A DNA stretch of 30,163 nucleotides from the IMG/VR virus record IMGVR_UViG_2526164632_000040; one strand, 5' to 3'. Shown one piece after another: positions 2,252-10,936 of this stretch. The position numbers and the translations under genes are program-made. Each line of letters opens with the position of its first letter. The first letter of the stretch is position 1. The stretch comes from a virus. Taxonomy: Duplodnaviria; Heunggongvirae; Uroviricota; Caudoviricetes. The notes under the pieces were generated by a model that was not told the DNA's origin, did not search any database, and worked only from the letters and a program-made list of their open reading frames with translations.

Positions 2252-2638
2252 ATGTCCGATCCGATTTCCGGTACTGGGCTGGCTGGTGGTGCCCTGACGG
2301 GTGCCAGTGTTTATGGACTGCTGACCGGAACTGATTACGGCGTTGTATTTGGCGCATTTGCAGGGGCTGTATTCTACATAGCAACAGCAGCAGATCTGAG
2401 TGCATCGCGCCGACTGGCATATTTTATCGTGTCATATATTGCCGGGATTCTTTGCTCTGGGTTGGTTGGCTCCAAGCTGGCGAACTTGACCGGATACAGT
2501 GATAAACCTCTGGATGCTATTGGTGCCGTAATCGTCTCTGCTTTAGCCGTTAAAATCCTGACGTTCCTGAATAATCAGGATATCGGCTCGCTGGTGGCGC
2601 TCATAACGCGCCGGGGAGGTTCAGGTGGAGCTAAATGA
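2252..2638 (+). CDS. phage holin (putative)
   Basis: 128-aa Gly/Ala-rich protein with several hydrophobic segments, first gene of the lysis cassette. Strong Shine-Dalgarno GAGGGGG before ATG 2252. Confidence 0.55.
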   Translation: MSDPISGTGLAGGALTGASVYGLLTGTDYGVVFGAFAGAVFYIATAADLSASRRLAYFIVSYIAGILCSGLVGSKLANLTGYSDKPLDAIGAVIVSALAVKILTFLNNQDIGSLVALITRRGGSGGAK

Positions 2639-2906
2639 CCCGACAGCAACTATAAATGCGCTGTTATGTGCTTGTGTTGTTATTACTCTGATGTTTTATC
2701 GTCGTGGTGATTCGCGGCATCGTCCTTGGGTTTCACGTTTAGCCTGGCTGATTACTGTTACATACAGTGCTGTTCCGTTGGCCTATCTCTGTGGGATTTA
2801 TCCTCATTCCTCATGGCCCATTATCGTGGCGAACACTATTTTTCTTTCCGTGCTGGTGGCCGTCAGAGGCAACGTTGCACGTCTGGTTGATCATCTGAGG
2901 CACTAA
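2625..2906 (+). CDS. small membrane protein of lysis cassette (holin/antiholin-like)
   Basis: 93 aa with three predicted transmembrane stretches. GTG start overlaps the holin 3' end, and its stop overlaps the endolysin start. Confidence 0.35.
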   Translation: MELNDPTATINALLCACVVITLMFYRRGDSRHRPWVSRLAWLITVTYSAVPLAYLCGIYPHSSWPIIVANTIFLSVLVAVRGNVARLVDHLRH

Positions 2907-3520
2907 TGAACCAACAATTATTTCAAAAGGCGGCTGGTATTAGCGCCGGGCTGGCTGCGCGCTGGTTTCCGCACATTGATGCGGCGATGAAGGAATTCGG
3001 CATTACAGCACCAGCGGATCAGGCAATGTTTATTGCTCAGGTAGGCCATGAGTCGATGGGGTTTAGCGCCGTAGTTGAAAATTTTAACTACACACCATCT
3101 GCGCTTGTGGCGACGTTCGGAAAGAGGATCACACAGCAGCAGGCTGATGCCCTTGGCAGAACATCCGGACATGCAGCTCGTCAGGATGCTATTGCCAATC
3201 TTGTGTATAGCAACCGGCTGGGTAACAAAGCACCCGGTGATGGCTGGAAATATCGCGGTAGAGGATTAATTCAAATCACTGGCCTCCATAATTATCGCAT
3301 CTGTGGCGCGGCGCTGAAGTTAGATCTGGTGACTTCACCTGAACAACTGGAGCAGGATCTACAGGCCGCGCGCTCAGCTGCATGGTTCTACACATCTAAA
3401 GGCTGCATGGTCTACGGTGCCGATATTAATCGTGTTACGCGCATCATTAACGGCGGTCTGAACGGTATTGAGGATCGTAAGATTCGATACAACAAGGCGC
3501 GGGCGGCGCTGCTGGTATGA
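2906..3520 (+). CDS. endolysin, glycoside hydrolase family 19 (chitinase-like lysozyme)
   Basis: 204 aa with GH19-type motifs (FIAQVGHES, YRGRGLIQITG, INGGLNG). Lies between holin and Rz. Confidence 0.7.
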   Translation: MNQQLFQKAAGISAGLAARWFPHIDAAMKEFGITAPADQAMFIAQVGHESMGFSAVVENFNYTPSALVATFGKRITQQQADALGRTSGHAARQDAIANLVYSNRLGNKAPGDGWKYRGRGLIQITGLHNYRICGAALKLDLVTSPEQLEQDLQAARSAAWFYTSKGCMVYGADINRVTRIINGGLNGIEDRKIRYNKARAALLV

Positions 3521-3978
3521 AGACGAGTTATTGGGCGCTCATTTTAACGTTTATTGCTTGTATTGCTGGTGGTCTTGTCTGGTCAGCTAATCATTACCAC
3601 AATAAAGCCATTGAATACAAAAAACAGCGCGATGAAAACGCTATGGCATTAGATTCGGCTATGGCGACGATCTCTGATATGCAGAAGCGTCAACGTGACG
3701 TAGCAGAACTCGATGCCAGATATACAAAGGAGCTTGCTGATGCTAACGCCACTATCGAAAGTCTCCGTGCTGATGTTTCTGCTGGTCGTAAGCGCCTGCA
3801 AGTCTCCGCCACCTGTGCAAAGTCAACGACCGGAGCCAGCAGCATGGGCGATGGAGAAAGCCCAAGACTTACAGCAGATGCTGAACTCAATTATTACCGT
3901 CTCCGAAGTGGAATAGACAGGATAACCGCGCAGGTTAACTACCTGCAGGAGTACATCAGGGCTCAGTGCCTGAAATAA
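3517..3978 (+). CDS. Rz-like i-spanin
   Basis: 153 aa with N-terminal transmembrane anchor and coiled-coil-like periplasmic part. ATGA overlap with the endolysin stop. Confidence 0.65.
   Translation: MKTSYWALILTFIACIAGGLVWSANHYHNKAIEYKKQRDENAMALDSAMATISDMQKRQRDVAELDARYTKELADANATIESLRADVSAGRKRLQVSATCAKSTTGASSMGDGESPRLTADAELNYYRLRSGIDRITAQVNYLQEYIRAQCLK
3740..3916 (+). CDS. Rz1-like o-spanin lipoprotein, embedded in Rz in the +1 frame
   Basis: ORF 3713..3916 lies wholly inside Rz. Internal ATG 3740 has AGGAG 8 nt upstream. Product has a signal peptide ending in lipobox VSAC and a proline-rich mature part. Confidence 0.6.
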   Translation: MLTPLSKVSVLMFLLVVSACKSPPPVQSQRPEPAAWAMEKAQDLQQMLNSIITVSEVE

Positions 3979-4180: not shown

Positions 4181-4711
4181 ATGAAGTACCCAACAGTTAT
4201 TGTCAATGGTGTGTCCGTTCGTGTTGATGAGGATGGACGCTACAACTTAAACGATCTCCATGCAGCAGCAGTTGCAAATGGAGAGGCTACAGAGCAACAG
4301 CGCCCAAGCCAGTTTTTGCGTAGCGCGCAGATAAAACGCTTCATAAAAGCACTGGAGGCCAAAGTGCAAAAAAGCACTTTGGAACAAATTCAGCCACTTA
4401 AAATAATCAAAGGTGGTGCAGAACCAGGTGTGTGGGGTGTTGAACTTCTGGCAATCAGATATGCAGCATGGATTAAGCCGGAATTTGAAATCGAAGTTTA
4501 TGAAGTTTTCAAAACGGTTGTCCGTCTCGGCGTTGGCGCAATGTCCCGTCTGAATAGAATCGATCACATCATCAATACTGAAACCAAAGCGATAAGCCAG
4601 TGCGCAAGCCAAATGGCTAAGTGGGGCGTTGGTGGGCGAAAAAGATTGCTTCATGTTGCACGTGAGAGAGCGGCAAATGAAGTGCAAATGTATTTGCCCG
4701 GAATGGTGTGA
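4181..4711 (+). CDS. KilA-N domain protein
   Basis: N-terminal region matches the KilA-N pattern as recalled (VDEDGRYNLNDLHAAA..., RPSQFLR, GVWGVELLAIRYAAWIKPEFEIEV). Isolated gene flanked by non-coding DNA. Confidence 0.6.
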   Translation: MKYPTVIVNGVSVRVDEDGRYNLNDLHAAAVANGEATEQQRPSQFLRSAQIKRFIKALEAKVQKSTLEQIQPLKIIKGGAEPGVWGVELLAIRYAAWIKPEFEIEVYEVFKTVVRLGVGAMSRLNRIDHIINTETKAISQCASQMAKWGVGGRKRLLHVARERAANEVQMYLPGMV

Positions 4712-5026
4712 TTTCGCAGGTTAATCCAGTTTTTGCATTACGGCAGTACAGCGAAACAACCCAAGCCAGTAAGTGGGGAAATAACACTGGCAGCCACTGA
4801 AAGATGAACCTCCAGCCTTATGGCAAAAAAGATTCTTTGTGGTGGCGGACTGATGGAAAGACATCGGTTATTGCAGAGGCCATTCAATGAGTGGTCTCGA
4901 CAATGGCTTATACCCTGCACGGGATAACTTAACTGATATCCATTTTAACGGATAAACGGAGCCAATAATGGCAGAGAATGTCGGCATTATGGCAATGAAA
5001 TTTGGATAAATCGGAGATTAGTACAT

Positions 5027-5377
5027 ATGCCGCCACGAATCCCAAAAGCCTGCCGTGTTCGCGGTTGCCGCCATACCACCACAGATCCGTCAGGCTATTG
5101 TGAAAGCCACAAAAGCGAAGGCTGGAAGCAATACAAACCTGGACAATCCCGTCATCAGCGCGGCTACGGTTCGAAGTGGGACAGTATCCGCGTGCGCATA
5201 TTGAAGCGTGACAAAGGCCTGTGTCAGTTATGTCTGCGTGCTGGTGTGGTGCGTGAGGCGAAAACCGTTGACCACATCATTCCTAAAGCGCATGGCGGCA
5301 CTGATGCCGACAGTAATCTGCAGAGTCTGTGCTGGCCCTGCCATAAGGCGAAGACGGCCCGTGAACGGTTAAAGTGA
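5027..5377 (+). CDS. HNH endonuclease (terminase-associated)
   Basis: 116 aa with Cys-rich N-terminus and HNH motif (DHIIPKAHGG...NLQSLCWPCH). Sits immediately upstream of terS/terL as in cos-type HK97-like phages. Confidence 0.75.
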   Translation: MPPRIPKACRVRGCRHTTTDPSGYCESHKSEGWKQYKPGQSRHQRGYGSKWDSIRVRILKRDKGLCQLCLRAGVVREAKTVDHIIPKAHGGTDADSNLQSLCWPCHKAKTARERLK

Positions 5378-5502
5378 TAATAATTCTCAACTGTCTGAGG
5401 GGAGGGGCGGGTCAAATCCCTGTGACCTGACGTCTTCCGGACTGCCCGCCCCATCGTTTTTTTATACCCGCGAAAAATGAAATTTAACCAGGAGTGCCGC
5501 AT

Positions 5503-5997
5503 ATGGCTGGAACGGCGGGGCGTTCCGGGCGTCGCCCCAAGCCAACGGCGCGCAAGGCGCTGGCCGGAAACCCCGGCAAGCGAGCCCTGAATAAAGATGA
5601 ACCTGTTTTTACGCCCATCAAAGGTGTTGAGCCACCGGAGTGGTTCGCTGAAGAAGATCTCCCTCTCGCTACGATCATGTGGCAACTGACAACTAAAGAA
5701 CTCTGCGGTCAGGGCCTGCTGTGCGTGACTGACCTTGCGGTGCTTGAGCGGTGGTGCGTGGCCTACGAGTTCTGGCGACGTGCCGTGAAAAATATTGCCA
5801 GACAGGGCAACACCATCACCGGTGCAATGGGCGGCAGGGTCAAAAATCCGGAGCTGACTGCCAAAAAAGAACAGGAGTCCGAGATGAGCAGTACGGGGGC
5901 AATGCTCGGACTCGACCCCAGCAGCCGCCAGCGTCTGATTGGCCTGGCGGGGAAGAAGAAAGCCACTAACCCGTTTCTGAAAATTATCGAATCATGA
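5503..5997 (+). CDS. terminase small subunit (P27-family-like)
   Basis: Basic N-terminus ([18 protein letters not shown]). ATG 5503 is preferred over GTG 5494 because of AGGAG upstream. ATGA overlap with terL. Confidence 0.65.
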
Positions 5998-7727
5998 GCC
6001 GGAAATCTTACCCCAACGTAAATGCTGCCAATCAGTATGCCCGTGATGTCGTGCGCGGAAAGATTGTGGCCTGCCAGTTTGTGATTCAGGCCTGCCAGCG
6101 CCATCTTGATGACCTGATGGCGGAAAAAAGTAAGTCGTTTCGTTACCGCTTCGACAAGGACCTGGCTGAACGGGCCGCCAAATTTATTCAGCTGTTGCCG
6201 CACACCAAGGGTGAGTGGGCATTCAAGAGGATGCCCATCACGCTGGAGCCGTGGCAGCTATTTGTGGTCTGCTGTGCGTTTGGCTGGGTCAATAAAGGGT
6301 CCCGGCTGCGCCGCTTCCGGGAGGTGTATACCGAAATCCCCCGTAAGAACGGCAAATCGGCAATCTCTGCCGGTGTTGCCCTGTATTGTTTTGCCTGTGA
6401 TAACGAGTTCGGCGCGGAAGTGTATTCCGGTGCCACGACAGAGAAACAGGCGTGGGAAGTCTTTCGCCCGGCGCGACTGATGTGTAAACGCACCCCCATG
6501 CTGACGGAAGCGTTCGGGATTGAGGTTAACGCCTCAAACATGAACCGTCCGGAGGATGGCGCGCGGTTTGAACCGCTGATCGGCAACCCAGGTGATGGTT
6601 CATCACCCCACTGTGCCGTGGTTGATGAATATCACGAGCATGCCACCGATGCGCTTTATACCACAATGCTTACCGGGATGGGGGCGCGACGTCAGCCACT
6701 GATGTGGGCCATCACCACCGCCGGGTACAACATTGAGGGGCCGTGCTACGACAAGCGGCGGGAAGTCATCGAGATGCTCAACGGCTCGGTGCCTAACGAT
6801 GAACTGTTCGGGATCATCTATACCGTTGATGAAGGTGACGACTGGACCGACCCGCAGGTGCTGGAAAAAGCCAATCCAAATATTGGCGTGTCGGTTTATC
6901 GCGAATTTTTGTTAAGTCAGCAGCAGCGTGCGAAAAATAACGCCCGTCTGGCAAACGTCTTTAAAACAAAACACCTCAATATCTGGGTGTCGGCGCGTTC
7001 GGCGTATTTCAACCTGGTGAGCTGGCAGAGCTGCGAGGATAAATCACTGACCCTTGAGCAGTTCGAGGGGCAGCCGTGCATTCTGGCCTTTGACCTGGCG
7101 CGTAAGCTGGATATGAACAGCATGGCGCGACTTTATACCCGCGAGATTGACGGTAAAACGCATTACTACAGTGTGGCCCCGCGCTTCTGGGTACCGTATG
7201 ACACGGTGTACAGCGTCGAGAAAAATGAAGATAGACGGACAGCCGAACGCTTTCAGAAATGGGTGAAAATGGGCGTCCTGACCGTTACCGATGGTGCAGA
7301 GGTGGATTATCGCTACATCCTCGAGGAGGCCAAAGCGGCGAACAAAATCAGCCCGGTCAGTGAGTCACCCATCGACCCCTTCGGGGCGACCGGGCTGTCA
7401 CATGACCTTGCTGATGAAGATCTGAATCCCGTCACTATCGTCCAGAACTTCGCCAATATGTCCGATCCGATGAAAGAGCTGGAAGCAGCGATTGAATCGG
7501 GACGCTTTCATCATGACGGCAATCCCATCATGACCTGGTGTATCGGCAATGTGGTCGGCAAAAACATGCCAGGTAACGATGATTTAGTGAAGCCCGTCAA
7601 GGAGCAGGCGGAAAACAAAATCGATGGTGCGGTTGCACTGATTATGACGATCGGTCGGGCAATGCTCAAAGAACCTGACGATTTCCTCTCATCTCTTGAT
7701 CCGGACGATGATCTCTTAATTCTATGA
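5994..7727 (+). CDS. terminase large subunit
   Basis: 577 aa, the size and position expected for a large terminase. Follows terS with start/stop overlap. Confidence 0.85.
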
Positions 7728-7885
7728 AATCACTAATTGCTGATGTTATCGGGCTGGCTGGTTTTGGCCTGCTTACGTGCGGGGTTTACCTGCAGTTTGG
7801 TATGGCTCCGGCTCTGATTTTGTCCGGTGCTTTACTGCTGGTGGGCGCACTGGCTATGGCCAGAAGGGGGACGCGTGCTGCTTGA
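7724..7885 (+). CDS. hypothetical small membrane protein (53 aa)
   Basis: Hand-translated [56 protein letters not shown], absent from the >=60 aa track. ATG overlaps the terL stop (ATGA) and the 3' end overlaps the portal start. Two hydrophobic helices. Confidence 0.3.
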
Positions 7886-9101
7886 TGCTCTGTTCAGAAG
7901 TAAATCACTGGAGAATCCTTCCACCCCGATAACCGGTGATGCCGTTGATACTGATGGGCTGTTCCGGGCAGACGTTTATGTCAGTCCTGAGACTGCGATG
8001 AAACTGGCTGCGGTGTATTCCTGTATCTATGTCCTGTCTTCCAGCCTTGCCCAGATGCCGTTGCATGTTATGCGCAGGCACAAGGGGAAGGTTGAACCCG
8101 CACGCGATCATCCGGCGTTTTATCTGGTTCATGATGAGCCCAATACCTGGCAAACCAGCTACAAATGGCGCGAACTGAAGCAACGTCACATCCTTGGCTG
8201 GGGGAATGGGTATACCTGGGTGAAACGTAATCGTCGCGGTGAAGTTATATCCCTGGATTGCTGTATGCCGTGGGAAACGACGCTGATGAATACTGGTGGC
8301 CGATATACCTACGGTTTGTACAACGAATATGGGGCGTTTGCGATCAGTCCGGACGATATGATCCACATCCGTGCGCTGGGTAATAATCAGAAGATGGGGC
8401 TGAGTCCGATTATGCAACATGCCGAAACAATAGGCATGGGGATGAGCGGTCAGAAGTACACAGAAAGCTTCTTCAGCGGTAATGCCCGTCCGGCGGGGAT
8501 AGTATCCGTTAAAAGCGGACTCAATAAGGAAAGCTGGGGCTGGCTTAAAGATCAGTGGCAGAAGGCATCGCAGGCGTTACGCCGCCAGGAAAACAAAACC
8601 ATGCTGCTGCCAGCCGATCTGGATTACAAGGCACTGACTGTGTCGCCAGTTGACGCTCAGATCATTGACATGATGAAGCTGAACCGTTCAATGATCGCCG
8701 GTATTTTCAATATTCCTGCGCACATGATTAATGACCTCGAAAAAGCCACCTTCTCCAATATTTCTGCGCAGGCGATTCAGTTTGTCCGCTACACGATGAT
8801 GCCGTGGGTGACGAACTGGGAGCAGGAGCTTAACCGTCGCTTGTTTACCCGCGCTGAGTTAGCCGCCGGGTATTACGTCAGGTTCAATCTGACGGGGCTT
8901 TTACGCGGAACTCCGCAGGAGCGCGCGCAATTCTATCACTTCGCTATTACCGATGGATGGATGAGCCGTAATGAGGCCCGCGCATTCGAGGATATGAATC
9001 CGGTTGAAGGGCTGGACGAGATGCTGGTAAGCGTGAATGCTGCTAACCCGGCAGGAGATTTTAAGCCCCCAAAAAACGATGAGGGAAAAACCAATGAATG
9101 A
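7875..9101 (+). CDS. portal protein (HK97-family-like)
   Basis: About 409 aa between terminase and prohead protease. GTG 7875 is preferred because of AGAAGGGGG just upstream; the track's ATG 7827 is an alternative. Confidence 0.8.
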   Translation: MLLDALFRSKSLENPSTPITGDAVDTDGLFRADVYVSPETAMKLAAVYSCIYVLSSSLAQMPLHVMRRHKGKVEPARDHPAFYLVHDEPNTWQTSYKWRELKQRHILGWGNGYTWVKRNRRGEVISLDCCMPWETTLMNTGGRYTYGLYNEYGAFAISPDDMIHIRALGNNQKMGLSPIMQHAETIGMGMSGQKYTESFFSGNARPAGIVSVKSGLNKESWGWLKDQWQKASQALRRQENKTMLLPADLDYKALTVSPVDAQIIDMMKLNRSMIAGIFNIPAHMINDLEKATFSNISAQAIQFVRYTMMPWVTNWEQELNRRLFTRAELAAGYYVRFNLTGLLRGTPQERAQFYHFAITDGWMSRNEARAFEDMNPVEGLDEMLVSVNAANPAGDFKPPKNDEGKTNE

Positions 9102-9696
9102 CCGTGAAATCCGTTGTTACAGCGGTGAGGTGCGTGCTGAGAGGCATGACGATAACCCGGCGCACATTATCGGTTATGGATCGGTGTTTGACTGTCGTTC
9201 TGAGCTGATATTCGGTTCATTCCGCGAAATCATCCGGCCCGGCGCTTTTGACGATGTGCTTGGTGATGATGTACGCGCACTGTTTAACCACGATCCTAAT
9301 TTTATTCTTGGGCGTAGTGCAGCAGGCACGCTGAATCTTTCAGTTGATGAGCGCGGATTACGCTATGACATCCAGGCTCCGGAGACACAGACCATTCGTG
9401 ATCTGGTGCTGGCCCCGATGCAACGTGGAGATATTAACCAGTCATCTTTCGCTTTCCGTGTCGCCCGTGACGGTGAGGAGTGGTATCAGGATGAGGACGG
9501 GGTTGTTATTCGCGAGATAACCCGCTTTTCCCGTCTGCTGGATGTCAGTCCTGTGACATATCCTGCCTATCAGGAGGCTGACTCGGCTGTTCGCTCCATG
9601 AAAGCATGGCAGGAGGCGCGCAACAGCGGCGCGCTACAGAAAGCCATTAATCAACGTATGGCGCGTGAACGCGTCCTGACCCTTCTTAACGCGTAA
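9094..9696 (+). CDS. prohead protease (HK97-family-like)
   Basis: Position between portal and major capsid. ATG 9094 has GAGGG upstream and overlaps the portal stop. Confidence 0.7.
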   Translation: MNDREIRCYSGEVRAERHDDNPAHIIGYGSVFDCRSELIFGSFREIIRPGAFDDVLGDDVRALFNHDPNFILGRSAAGTLNLSVDERGLRYDIQAPETQTIRDLVLAPMQRGDINQSSFAFRVARDGEEWYQDEDGVVIREITRFSRLLDVSPVTYPAYQEADSAVRSMKAWQEARNSGALQKAINQRMARERVLTLLNA

Positions 9697-9706
9697 AGGA
9701 AACATC

Positions 9707-10936
9707 ATGAAACTGCATGAACTGAAACAGAAACGTAATACTATCGCAACTGACATGCGCGCCCTGAATGAAAAAATTGGTGATAACGCATGGACGGAAG
9801 AGCAGCGCACTGAGTGGAACAAAGCAAAATCCGAACTGGAAGCGCTTGATGAACGAATTGCACGCGAAGAAGAACTGCGTCGTCAGGATCAGGCGTACAT
9901 TGAAAGCAATGAGGAAGAGCAGCGTCAGAATCTTGATCCGGAAAACAATTCGCAACAGGATGAGAAACGAGCTCAGGTTTTTGATAAGTGGATGCGTCAC
10001 GGTGCCAGTGAGCTGACATCAGAAGAGCGAAAGGCGTTGCGTGAACTTCGTGCCCAGGGTGTAGCTCAGGATGAAAAGGGCGGATATACCGTACCAGAAA
10101 CATTCCTGGCGAAAGTTGTTGAGAAGATGAAATCCTACGGTGGCATCGCCAGTGTGGCGCAGATTCTGACCACTTCTGACGGTCGCACCATGGAGTGGGC
10201 AACAGCTGATGGTACTTCCGAAGTTGGTGTTCTGCTGGGCGAAAATGAAGAAGCCGGTGAAGAAGACACCGATTTCGGTATGGGAAGTCTTGGGGCGCTC
10301 AAAATGACATCGAAAATCATTCGTGTGTCTAATGAGTTGCTGCAGGACAGCGCGATCGATATGGAAGCTTATCTTGCCCGTCGCATTGCTGAACGTATTG
10401 GTCGTGGTGAAGCCCGTTATCTGATTCAGGGGACTGGTGCTGGTACGCCTAAACAACCCAAAGGGCTGGCAGCATCAGTGACCGGCACAACACAGACTGC
10501 CGCGGCAAATGCGGTGAAGTGGCAGGAAATTCTGGCTCTGAAACACAGCATTGATCCTGCATATCGTCGCGGACCGAAATTCCGCCTGGCATTTAACGAT
10601 AATACGCTGAAACTGATCAGTGAGATGGAAGACGGTCAGGGACGCCCTTTATGGTTGCCGGATATTGTTGGTGTGGCACCTGCTTCAGTGTTGAATGTAC
10701 CTTATGTCATTGATCAGGAAATTGATGATATCGGGGCGGGTAAAAAATTCATGTTCTGTGGTGACTTTGATCGCTTCATTATCCGTCGTGTGCGATACAT
10801 GATTCTTAAACGTCTGGTTGAGCGTTACGCGGAATATGATCAGACCGGTTTTCTGGCCTTCCATCGTTTTGACTGTATCCTGGAAGACACCTCTGCCATT
10901 AAAGCGCTGGTGGGGAAAGGTAGCGTTGGTGGTTGA
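9707..10936 (+). CDS. major capsid protein (HK97 fold, with N-terminal coiled-coil delta domain)
   Basis: 409 aa. The first ~100 residues are highly charged and coiled-coil-like, as in a scaffold/delta domain. AAAGGA Shine-Dalgarno. Confidence 0.8.
   Translation: MKLHELKQKRNTIATDMRALNEKIGDNAWTEEQRTEWNKAKSELEALDERIAREEELRRQDQAYIESNEEEQRQNLDPENNSQQDEKRAQVFDKWMRHGASELTSEERKALRELRAQGVAQDEKGGYTVPETFLAKVVEKMKSYGGIASVAQILTTSDGRTMEWATADGTSEVGVLLGENEEAGEEDTDFGMGSLGALKMTSKIIRVSNELLQDSAIDMEAYLARRIAERIGRGEARYLIQGTGAGTPKQPKGLAASVTGTTQTAAANAVKWQEILALKHSIDPAYRRGPKFRLAFNDNTLKLISEMEDGQGRPLWLPDIVGVAPASVLNVPYVIDQEIDDIGAGKKFMFCGDFDRFIIRRVRYMILKRLVERYAEYDQTGFLAFHRFDCILEDTSAIKALVGKGSVGG

Follow-up and report, generated by a model that had tools for sequence, protein, structure and literature searches.

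How the portal vertex is nucleated in HK97-type phages is poorly understood. In phage lambda, the head completion protein gpW is soluble and binds the portal after packaging, and gp15 of HK97 is a membrane superinfection-exclusion protein encoded inside the structural operon. In T4, the membrane-bound portal initiator gp20 depends on a viral factor, gp40 (PMC9958956). The subject of the present analysis is a small gene of 53 codons at positions 7724-7885 (+ strand) of a 30,163-nucleotide stretch of tailed-phage DNA (IMG/VR record IMGVR_UViG_2526164632_000040), here called the window, in which it lies between the genes for the large terminase (terL) and the portal protein. The window resembles Shigella flexneri phage SfV, with 99.8% identity in the region around the small frame. 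The frame is a genuine gene, a late gene of an SfV-type prophage, as judged from the open reading frame (ORF) itself, its match to the PHROG 7105 family, its conservation, its ratio of nonsynonymous to synonymous substitution (dN/dS), its annotation by the Prokaryotic Genome Annotation Pipeline (PGAP) and the AlphaFold model of its product, a predicted helical hairpin with two transmembrane segments.

The start codon of the small gene, ATG 7724-7726, shares the tetranucleotide ATGA (7724-7727) with the terL stop codon, TGA 7725-7727, and the frame closes after 53 codons at TGA 7883-7885, overlapping the GTG at 7875 in the portal frame by 11 nucleotides. These relationships had been described in a first-pass annotation of the same DNA and were confirmed by direct reading of the sequence. 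The strongly hydrophobic, two-helix character ascribed to the product is likewise borne out, with a grand average of hydropathy (GRAVY) of 1.25 and hydrophobic stretches at approximately residues 3-24 and 25-46, for which a membrane location is predicted. The codon at 7827, which had been given as an ATG and as an alternative portal start, is actually GTG.

Evidence for a protein-coding gene comes from the pattern of substitution among relatives. Eighty loci were gathered with the portal protein alone as bait, so that there is no bias toward retention of the small frame; these are close relatives only, at 90-100% identity, and are suited to the estimation of dN/dS, not to that of breadth. The 162-nucleotide frame is intact in 80/80 of these portal-ascertained loci. 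Together with five phage records (four of 162 nucleotides), the loci yield 35 distinct 162-nucleotide DNA variants, across which the pairwise Nei-Gojobori (NG86) method gives the small frame a dN/dS of 0.26, compared with 1.0 for the portal frame and 2.1 for the remaining one. The comparison of the small frame with the portal-extension frame in relatives, which the first-pass annotation had proposed as a check, thus favors the small frame. Stop codons interrupt the other two frames in 35/35 and 22/35 variants, and the positions that vary most are the third positions of small-frame codons, including those in the disputed stretch 7827-7874. From the dN/dS pattern and the third-position variation, it therefore follows that the small peptide is under purifying selection. 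On the same loci, dN/dS is 0.11-0.21 for the last 53 codons of terL, 0.24 for the small gene and 0.05-0.06 for portal codons 5-57. Across the family, there is no variation at residues M1, G13, G20 and G35 and almost none at D7 and G26, and G10, G15 and A42 are strongly conserved.

The same 35 variants locate the start of the portal gene. The position equivalent to 7875 is GTG or ATG in every one of them, and is always preceded by a purine-rich Shine-Dalgarno sequence, which reads AGAAGGGGG, GAGGGGG or GAGGAG (35/35); in the window, the ribosome-binding site of the portal at GTG 7875 is AGAAGGGGG. The position equivalent to 7827, on the other hand, is a start codon in only 15/35 variants and reads GCG, GCT, GCA or GAA in the other 20/35, while in 8/35 the portal frame is interrupted by stop codons between the two positions. 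No Shine-Dalgarno sequence was found before 7827 in the 35 contexts. In Klebsiella phage VIPKPNMC05 and Escherichia phage Evi, only 9 nucleotides of the portal frame are open 5' of the ATG that aligns with 7875, and PGAP, on identical E. coli DNA, as well as four independent phage annotations place the portal start at 7875 and annotate the small gene.

A portal starting at GTG 7827, with the small frame being no gene and its hydrophobic stretch merely overlapping an N-terminal extension of the portal, would agree with the SfV records, which place the start of orf3 there, and with the portal frame of the window, which is open for 57 nucleotides 5' of 7875. It would also give a protein of 424 residues, the length of the closest solved portal, 8cez_A; yet the alignment of this structure begins at residue 40 of the long translation, which leaves the N-terminal residues unaligned and the structure silent on the N-terminus. 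Besides the missing start codons, the intervening stops and the conserved Shine-Dalgarno sequence before 7875 and not 7827, the dN/dS of 1.0 in the portal frame argues against such a start, as does the fact that variation in the disputed 48 nucleotides is greatest at the third positions of small-frame codons, which in the portal frame would be second positions. The first-pass annotation had held this out as the alternative should the small frame not be real, to be judged by where homologous portals begin and by whether the small frame is conserved; homologous portals begin at the equivalent of 7875, and by both measures the alternative fails. A start at 7827 is thus very improbable, and that reading is effectively refuted already.

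The portal gene begins at GTG 7875, not at 7827, and extends on the + strand to 9101, encoding 408 residues with a Pfam Phage_portal match (E 3e-98). The deposited SfV orf3 is 16 codons too long, and in RefSeq both genes are given correctly on the identical DNA of E. coli genomes. In the SfV record (NC_003444.1 / U82619.2), the excess 16 codons are nucleotides 2392-2439, which correspond to 7827-7874 of the window.

The small gene is already known, in that an identical protein is present in RefSeq and its family is present in PHROGs without a function. PGAP annotates the 53-residue hypothetical protein WP_000838376.1 on identical DNA in E. coli genomes; the E. coli DNA is 100% identical over 7600-8000, and the gene lies there between terL and the portal gene. 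The GenBank and RefSeq records of SfV omit the small frame and open the portal gene (orf3) at the equivalent of 7827. The earlier description of the frame as unannotated therefore holds for the SfV records but not generally, since PGAP and several phage records annotate the homologue. Nor is the protein unusual, as had been supposed, since an identical RefSeq protein, an existing uncharacterized family and 355 profile clusters were found.

The match to PHROG 7105 is full length, with residues 1-52 aligned to profile positions 1-52 of 52 (E 3.2e-22, 79 bits), and homologues of the Ralstonia, Vibrio and Halomonas types match the same family. The protein shares the traits of PHROG 7105, being a stand-alone protein of approximately 50 residues with two hydrophobic helices and a basic C-terminal tail, and its gene also lies directly 5' of an HK97-family portal gene, a placement rule that was derived in this analysis and is not part of the PHROG definition. 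A weaker match was obtained to PHROG 502, "membrane protein" (E 5.7e-6). Searches of the 53-residue protein against Pfam (E ≤ 1), NCBIfam and PADLOC gave nothing significant, and PHROG 7105 itself has no name and no Pfam or NCBIfam model. A family profile, searched against 1.84 billion representatives with a cut-off of E ≤ 0.001 and clustering at 50% identity, retrieved 355 clusters, nearly all of 45-60 residues and matched end to end. Word-indexed searches found homologues in prophages of many Enterobacterales, Halomonadaceae, Ralstonia and Vibrio, nearly all labeled "hypothetical protein", and homologues occupy the same slot in phages of Edwardsiella, Salmonella, Klebsiella, Escherichia, Ralstonia, Halomonas and Vibrio. 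The stretch 7600-8000 was matched in 1182 of 5426 complete E. coli genomes, 260 of which matched at least 80% of it. A literature search on this gene, on the function of DUF1056 and on small membrane proteins beside portals found no paper. In Halomonas phage QHHSV-1 (KX879752.1; L088 2501-2690), the homologous small gene is cut to 30 codons and the remainder (LISSGALLLVLALAGARAAKR...) is read on in another frame, the 1-nucleotide indel being either a sequencing error or a recent pseudogene.

Comparison of gene contexts shows that the small gene accompanies the portal gene. Every homologue with a readable context lies directly 5' of a portal homologue, at portal identities of 28-92%, and the stop of the small gene and the start of the portal overlap or abut, as ATGA, as TGATG, or with overlaps of 4, 7, 10 or 11 nucleotides. 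This adjacency was seen in Ralstonia, Halomonas and Vibrio phages, in "Synechococcus" phage Ssp-JY37 and in Halomonadaceae and marine contigs, and it holds in seven distant clusters whose portals are just 28-60% identical to that of SfV. Twenty further loci were found in species-representative genomes by means of a degenerate DNA motif, the portal start being taken as the start of the tblastn match; in 20/20 of these motif-ascertained loci, the stop of the small gene lies -11 to +10 nucleotides from the portal start.

The link to terL is looser. At two loci (L105 and L106), with terL and the small gene separated by a run of five genes, the overlap with the portal is still 11 nucleotides; at two others (L103 and L104), no gene was called in the approximately 180 nucleotides 5' of the small gene. 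In Symbiopectobacterium, VIPKPNMC05 and Evi (for example L118, L004 and L005), terL is approximately 35% identical to that of SfV, compared with 83-85% for the portal and 55-70% for the small protein. Over 21 loci, the identity of the small protein to its SfV counterpart rises with that of the portal (Spearman 0.78, p 3e-5) and shows no such correlation for terL (Spearman 0.21, p 0.36); these loci are phylogenetically non-independent, and the p-values are therefore illustrative. Given the looser link to terL and an identity that tracks that of the portal, the small gene is part of the portal/head module and not of the terminase module, and a mosaic joint lies between terL and the small gene. 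The first-pass annotation had tied the small frame to the packaging genes; its coupling to terL through ATGA stands, but the emphasis was slightly off, as the conserved partner is the portal rather than the terminase.

Several details of these loci may be recorded. The five inserted genes of L105/L106 (1325-3400) have no Pfam match, the portal there has 512 residues and the protease is of the S49 type, not S78. At L103 (509-534) and L104 (156-181), GGGTTTTGCGCCGGTTTTTTGTTTT stands directly before the ATG of the small gene and resembles the T-tract of a terminator; in this distant lineage the small gene and the portal may open a transcription or translation unit of their own. A single chromosome of Symbiopectobacterium purcellii (NZ_CP189882.1; L118, L128, L129, L130 and L132) carries at least five copies of the head module with identical small proteins; terL is in reach in four of these copies and is 34-35% identical to that of SfV, the adjoining portal being 84% identical.

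No Shine-Dalgarno sequence was found 5' of the small gene, and its start lies inside the terL stop, as ATGA or GTGA, in 35/35 SfV-group variants. The missing Shine-Dalgarno sequence and the embedded start therefore indicate that the small gene is probably translated by re-initiation, at a low level. The Shine-Dalgarno sequence of the portal gene, in turn, is made up of the codons for the Arg/Gly/Lys tail of the small protein. In the window these codons are AGA AGG GGG, within AGAAGGGGGA at 7862-7871 (+ strand), which encodes the basic tail Arg-Arg-Gly; a purine-rich Shine-Dalgarno sequence is present in 35/35 contexts, and in distant lineages the tail codons provide AGGGGG, AAGGAG or GGAGGT. 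If the predicted topology is correct, the same bases would act both as a topology signal and as a ribosome-binding site. The sharing of the Shine-Dalgarno sequence with the tail codons would help to account for the rarity of recombination between the small gene and the portal. No RNA structure masking the portal Shine-Dalgarno sequence was predicted (z 0.47), and no + strand promoter-like site was found in 7300-8200. The single terminator-like site lies inside the small ORF and is at chance level, and the GC content of the small gene, 0.54, is equal to that of its flanks.

The predicted architecture of the small protein is that of a simple hairpin. From an alignment of 25 sequences, AlphaFold returned a confident model with a predicted local distance difference test (pLDDT) score of 87.7, in which helices at residues 2-25 and 27-52 are separated by a break at G26. 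The first predicted transmembrane helix, at approximately residues 4-24 (7733-7795, + strand), contains the conserved D7, G10, G13, G15 and G20, and is delimited by hydropathy, by invariant columns and by the modeled helix. It is followed by the short turn F25-G26-M27 (7796-7804, + strand), a predicted periplasmic loop in which G26 is invariant or nearly so, and by a second predicted transmembrane helix at approximately residues 28-46 (7805-7861, + strand), which contains the hydropathy maximum (2.48) and has G35 and A42 as its invariant or strongly conserved positions. A lysine is found near the N-terminus, the C-terminal tail is rich in arginine, and the family has a basic residue at position 2-3 and an uncharged turn. 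By the positive-inside rule, the basic ends and the short uncharged turn lead to the prediction that the protein lies in the inner membrane with its N- and C-termini on the cytoplasmic side. The conserved glycine faces suggest helix packing or oligomerization. A Foldseek search of the model against PDB and BFVD gave nothing at E ≤ 0.001, which is not surprising for a bare helical hairpin, and a sequence search of PDB with the family profile gave no match.

What such a protein might do can be considered within a terS-terL-X-portal-protease-capsid operon, where X is the small gene. Its product would be a 53-residue hairpin of the inner membrane whose two hydrophobic helices meet at an invariant glycine, and as a low-abundance inner-membrane partner it could recruit or nucleate the portal ring, or contribute to prohead initiation, on the pattern of gp40 and gp20 in T4. 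In support of this proposal, the gene keeps strict synteny with the portal and diverges along with it, its late expression is coupled and probably low, and its product has conserved glycine faces. A membrane-side helper of portal or prohead initiation would be the most likely function, and we put it forward tentatively. Such a helper would be accessory rather than core, because the gene is dispensable in many HK97-type lineages. Taken as a whole, the best explanation of the locus, and one that we regard as fairly probable, is that of a real portal-module gene, with the portal starting at 7875, to which a putative membrane-helper role is added.

Several observations weigh against this explanation. 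The step to function is drawn from the adjacency of the two genes and their co-divergence, the insertion into the membrane and the topology are predicted, and the fold searches returned no informative match. We know of no membrane step in HK97-type prohead assembly, and the searchable literature yielded no experimental work on a member of the family. The adjacency might instead come from the sharing of the portal ribosome-binding site with the tail codons, which would be enough to hinder recombination whatever the protein does. Selection on the small gene is somewhat weaker than on the flanking genes. Furthermore, terL is joined straight to the portal, with the small gene absent, in the HK97-like phage mEp234, Burkholderia PhiBP82.1, Caulobacter TMCBR4 and Pseudomonas D14B, and the same arrangement is found in Bacillus Gamma, Clostridium phi3626 and phage NatCom_19828.

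The dispensability of the gene in many lineages would also suit a real membrane protein with a job unrelated to the portal, such as superinfection exclusion, lysis timing as a holin or antiholin, or another envelope effect, which would sit beside the portal only through the shared ribosome-binding region. PHROG 502, to which the protein has a match of E 6e-6, carries the label "membrane protein" in the category "moron, auxiliary metabolic gene and host takeover", the size, two transmembrane helices and basic C-terminal tail of the protein are like those of class II holins, and the terL-portal junction takes accessory genes elsewhere (phd/doc in S. suis phages, a methylase in Mcat19). However, the gene has no promoter or terminator of its own and no difference in composition, and the lack of a Shine-Dalgarno sequence at its start probably means low, late expression, unfit for a lysogen exclusion protein or for an abundant holin. 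A full lysis cassette is present elsewhere in the window, and neither a Pfam holin nor PADLOC is matched; moreover, unlike sporadic morons, the gene is co-inherited with portals down to 28% identity. We consider such an unrelated envelope role doubtful, though still a serious contender. As individual candidates, a holin was rejected on account of the complete lysis cassette, and a moron was rejected because the gene lacks its own promoter and terminator, has a GC content like its flanks, diverges in step with the portal (Spearman 0.78) and is always portal-adjacent.

Two further explanations were considered. According to one, the small frame is a translated leader, on which ribosomes from terL re-initiate and reach the portal start, setting the ratio of terL to portal, with the peptide itself mattering little. 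Start and stop overlaps at both ends in almost all lineages (ATGA, TGATG, 4-11 nucleotides) and the lack of a Shine-Dalgarno sequence before the small gene would fit such a leader, but the constraint acts on the protein (dN/dS 0.24-0.26), and invariant Asp and Gly positions and a length of 45-60 residues are kept across 355 clusters. Moreover, the portal has a strong Shine-Dalgarno sequence of its own that no RNA structure sequesters (z 0.47), and many relatives couple terL directly to the portal with no leader, so that this explanation is improbable. According to the other, a programmed frameshift in the 11-nucleotide overlap would fuse the hairpin to the portal and thereby anchor a fraction of portal subunits in the membrane. 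The two frames do overlap, and AGGGGG 5' of a sense codon followed by UGA loosely recalls the +1 site of prfB; yet AGGGGG lies 9 nucleotides from the last sense codon, GCU UGA is not slippery, and the geometry and relative frame of the overlap vary among lineages (1, 4, 7, 10 or 11 nucleotides, or none), leaving no conserved shift site. A frameshift fusion is hardly credible, and was rejected for its variable overlap geometry.

The remainder of the neighborhood is ordered as follows. An HNH endonuclease gene (5027-5377) is followed by a P27-type small terminase gene (terS, 5494-5997) and by terL (5994-7727, + strand), which carries the Pfam domains TerL_ATPase and TerL_nuclease and corresponds to SfV orf2. 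On the 3' side of the portal lie the S78 prohead protease gene, which ends at 9696, and the HK97-type capsid protein gene (9707-10936). The complete lysis cassette lies upstream (2252-3978) and contains two holin-family genes of its own in tandem, a Phage_holin_8 gene (128 residues, 2252-2638) and a Phage_holin_3_7 gene (93 residues, 2625-2906), which overlap by 14 nucleotides, followed by a GH19-type endolysin gene (2906-3520) and an Rz gene (3517-3978) with an embedded Rz1 lipoprotein frame (3713-3916).

Other observations concern neighboring sites and other phages. In E. coli strain 720632 (L006 15-335), a gene annotated as "GrlR family regulatory protein" lies directly 5' of the HNH gene; at the counterpart of this site in the window, 4600-5000, no + strand ORF of at least 50 residues is listed, and the window and the strain 720632 prophage thus differ here although their packaging genes are identical. 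At the terL-portal junction, Streptococcus suis phages carry a phd/doc toxin-antitoxin pair and Moraxella phage Mcat19 carries two ORFs resembling a split DNA methyltransferase (L092 429-1054, L113 229-854 and L116 126-888 for this cargo of the S. suis phages and Mcat19), and the junction appears to be an insertion hot spot. Clostridium phage phi3626 has a 53-residue ORF, Gp4 (L114 2124-2285), on the opposite side of the portal, between portal and protease; Gp4 is hydrophilic and unrelated to the SfV protein, and its equal length is a coincidence.

These results have a direct practical meaning, in that anyone expressing or modeling the SfV portal should begin at GTG 7875, and in that the SfV reference record misses a conserved gene. 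Conserved phage micro-proteins that await study are numerous, and the small protein belongs among them. Its strict attachment to the portal holds through exchanges of the terminase and through insertions, and this makes the protein an inexpensive candidate for a part in the nucleation of the single portal vertex in HK97-type phages. Should portal assembly prove to be tethered to the membrane by this protein, head assembly initiated at the membrane would reach beyond T4; should the protein be only an accessory membrane protein, the matter would be one of routine annotation.

Among known systems, a 72-residue ORF of Bacillus phage phi105 likewise lies between terL and portal and encodes two hydrophobic helices and a basic tail. 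The phi105 ORF matches PHROG 502 (E 3e-7) and PHROG 1142 (E 1e-16), where the SfV protein matches PHROG 502 at E 6e-6. Against DUF1056, a family of two-transmembrane proteins from Gram-positive phages, the phi105 ORF is below threshold (E 0.048, 14.4 bits compared with a cut-off of 22.2) and the SfV protein has no match, and a direct comparison of the SfV family with the phi105 member is weak (hhalign probability 25%). From these profile matches, common ancestry of the SfV protein with the phi105, PHROG 502, PHROG 1142 and DUF1056 proteins is possible.

Class II holins and pinholins, such as S68 of phage 21, are also small, with a pair of hydrophobic helices, the first of them rich in Gly/Ala, and with a basic tail at the C-terminus, and they too are expressed late. 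The SfV protein is shorter than typical class II holins, however, has no Pfam holin match, and is encoded in the head operon approximately 3.7 kb downstream of the lysis cassette. Morons of the HK97 gp15 type resemble it as small inner-membrane proteins encoded among late structural genes, but the SfV gene differs in overlapping both of its neighbors, in its co-inheritance with the portal across deep divergence, and in having no PADLOC match. The gene for the 68-residue lambda gpW occupies the same slot, between the large terminase gene A and the portal gene B, and in a lambda-type phage retrieved in the portal search (row H125) W adjoins B. Unlike gpW, the SfV protein is strongly hydrophobic (GRAVY 1.25), and searches of family libraries gave no named head-completion family.

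The comparison with T4 is of a different kind. One may speculate, with little confidence, that in this clade of HK97-type phages the inner membrane is the site at which head assembly starts, where the hairpin would oligomerize via G10, G13, G15, G20 and G35 and dock or template the portal dodecamer, while tail codons that double as the portal ribosome-binding site would keep the two genes inseparable; the small protein would then be a minimal, portal-coupled analogue of the T4 gp40-gp20 initiator. T4 is not an HK97-type phage, and the likeness between gp40 and the SfV protein lies in the proposed role alone: that of a viral factor linked to both the portal and the inner membrane in the earliest stage of head assembly (PMC9958956).

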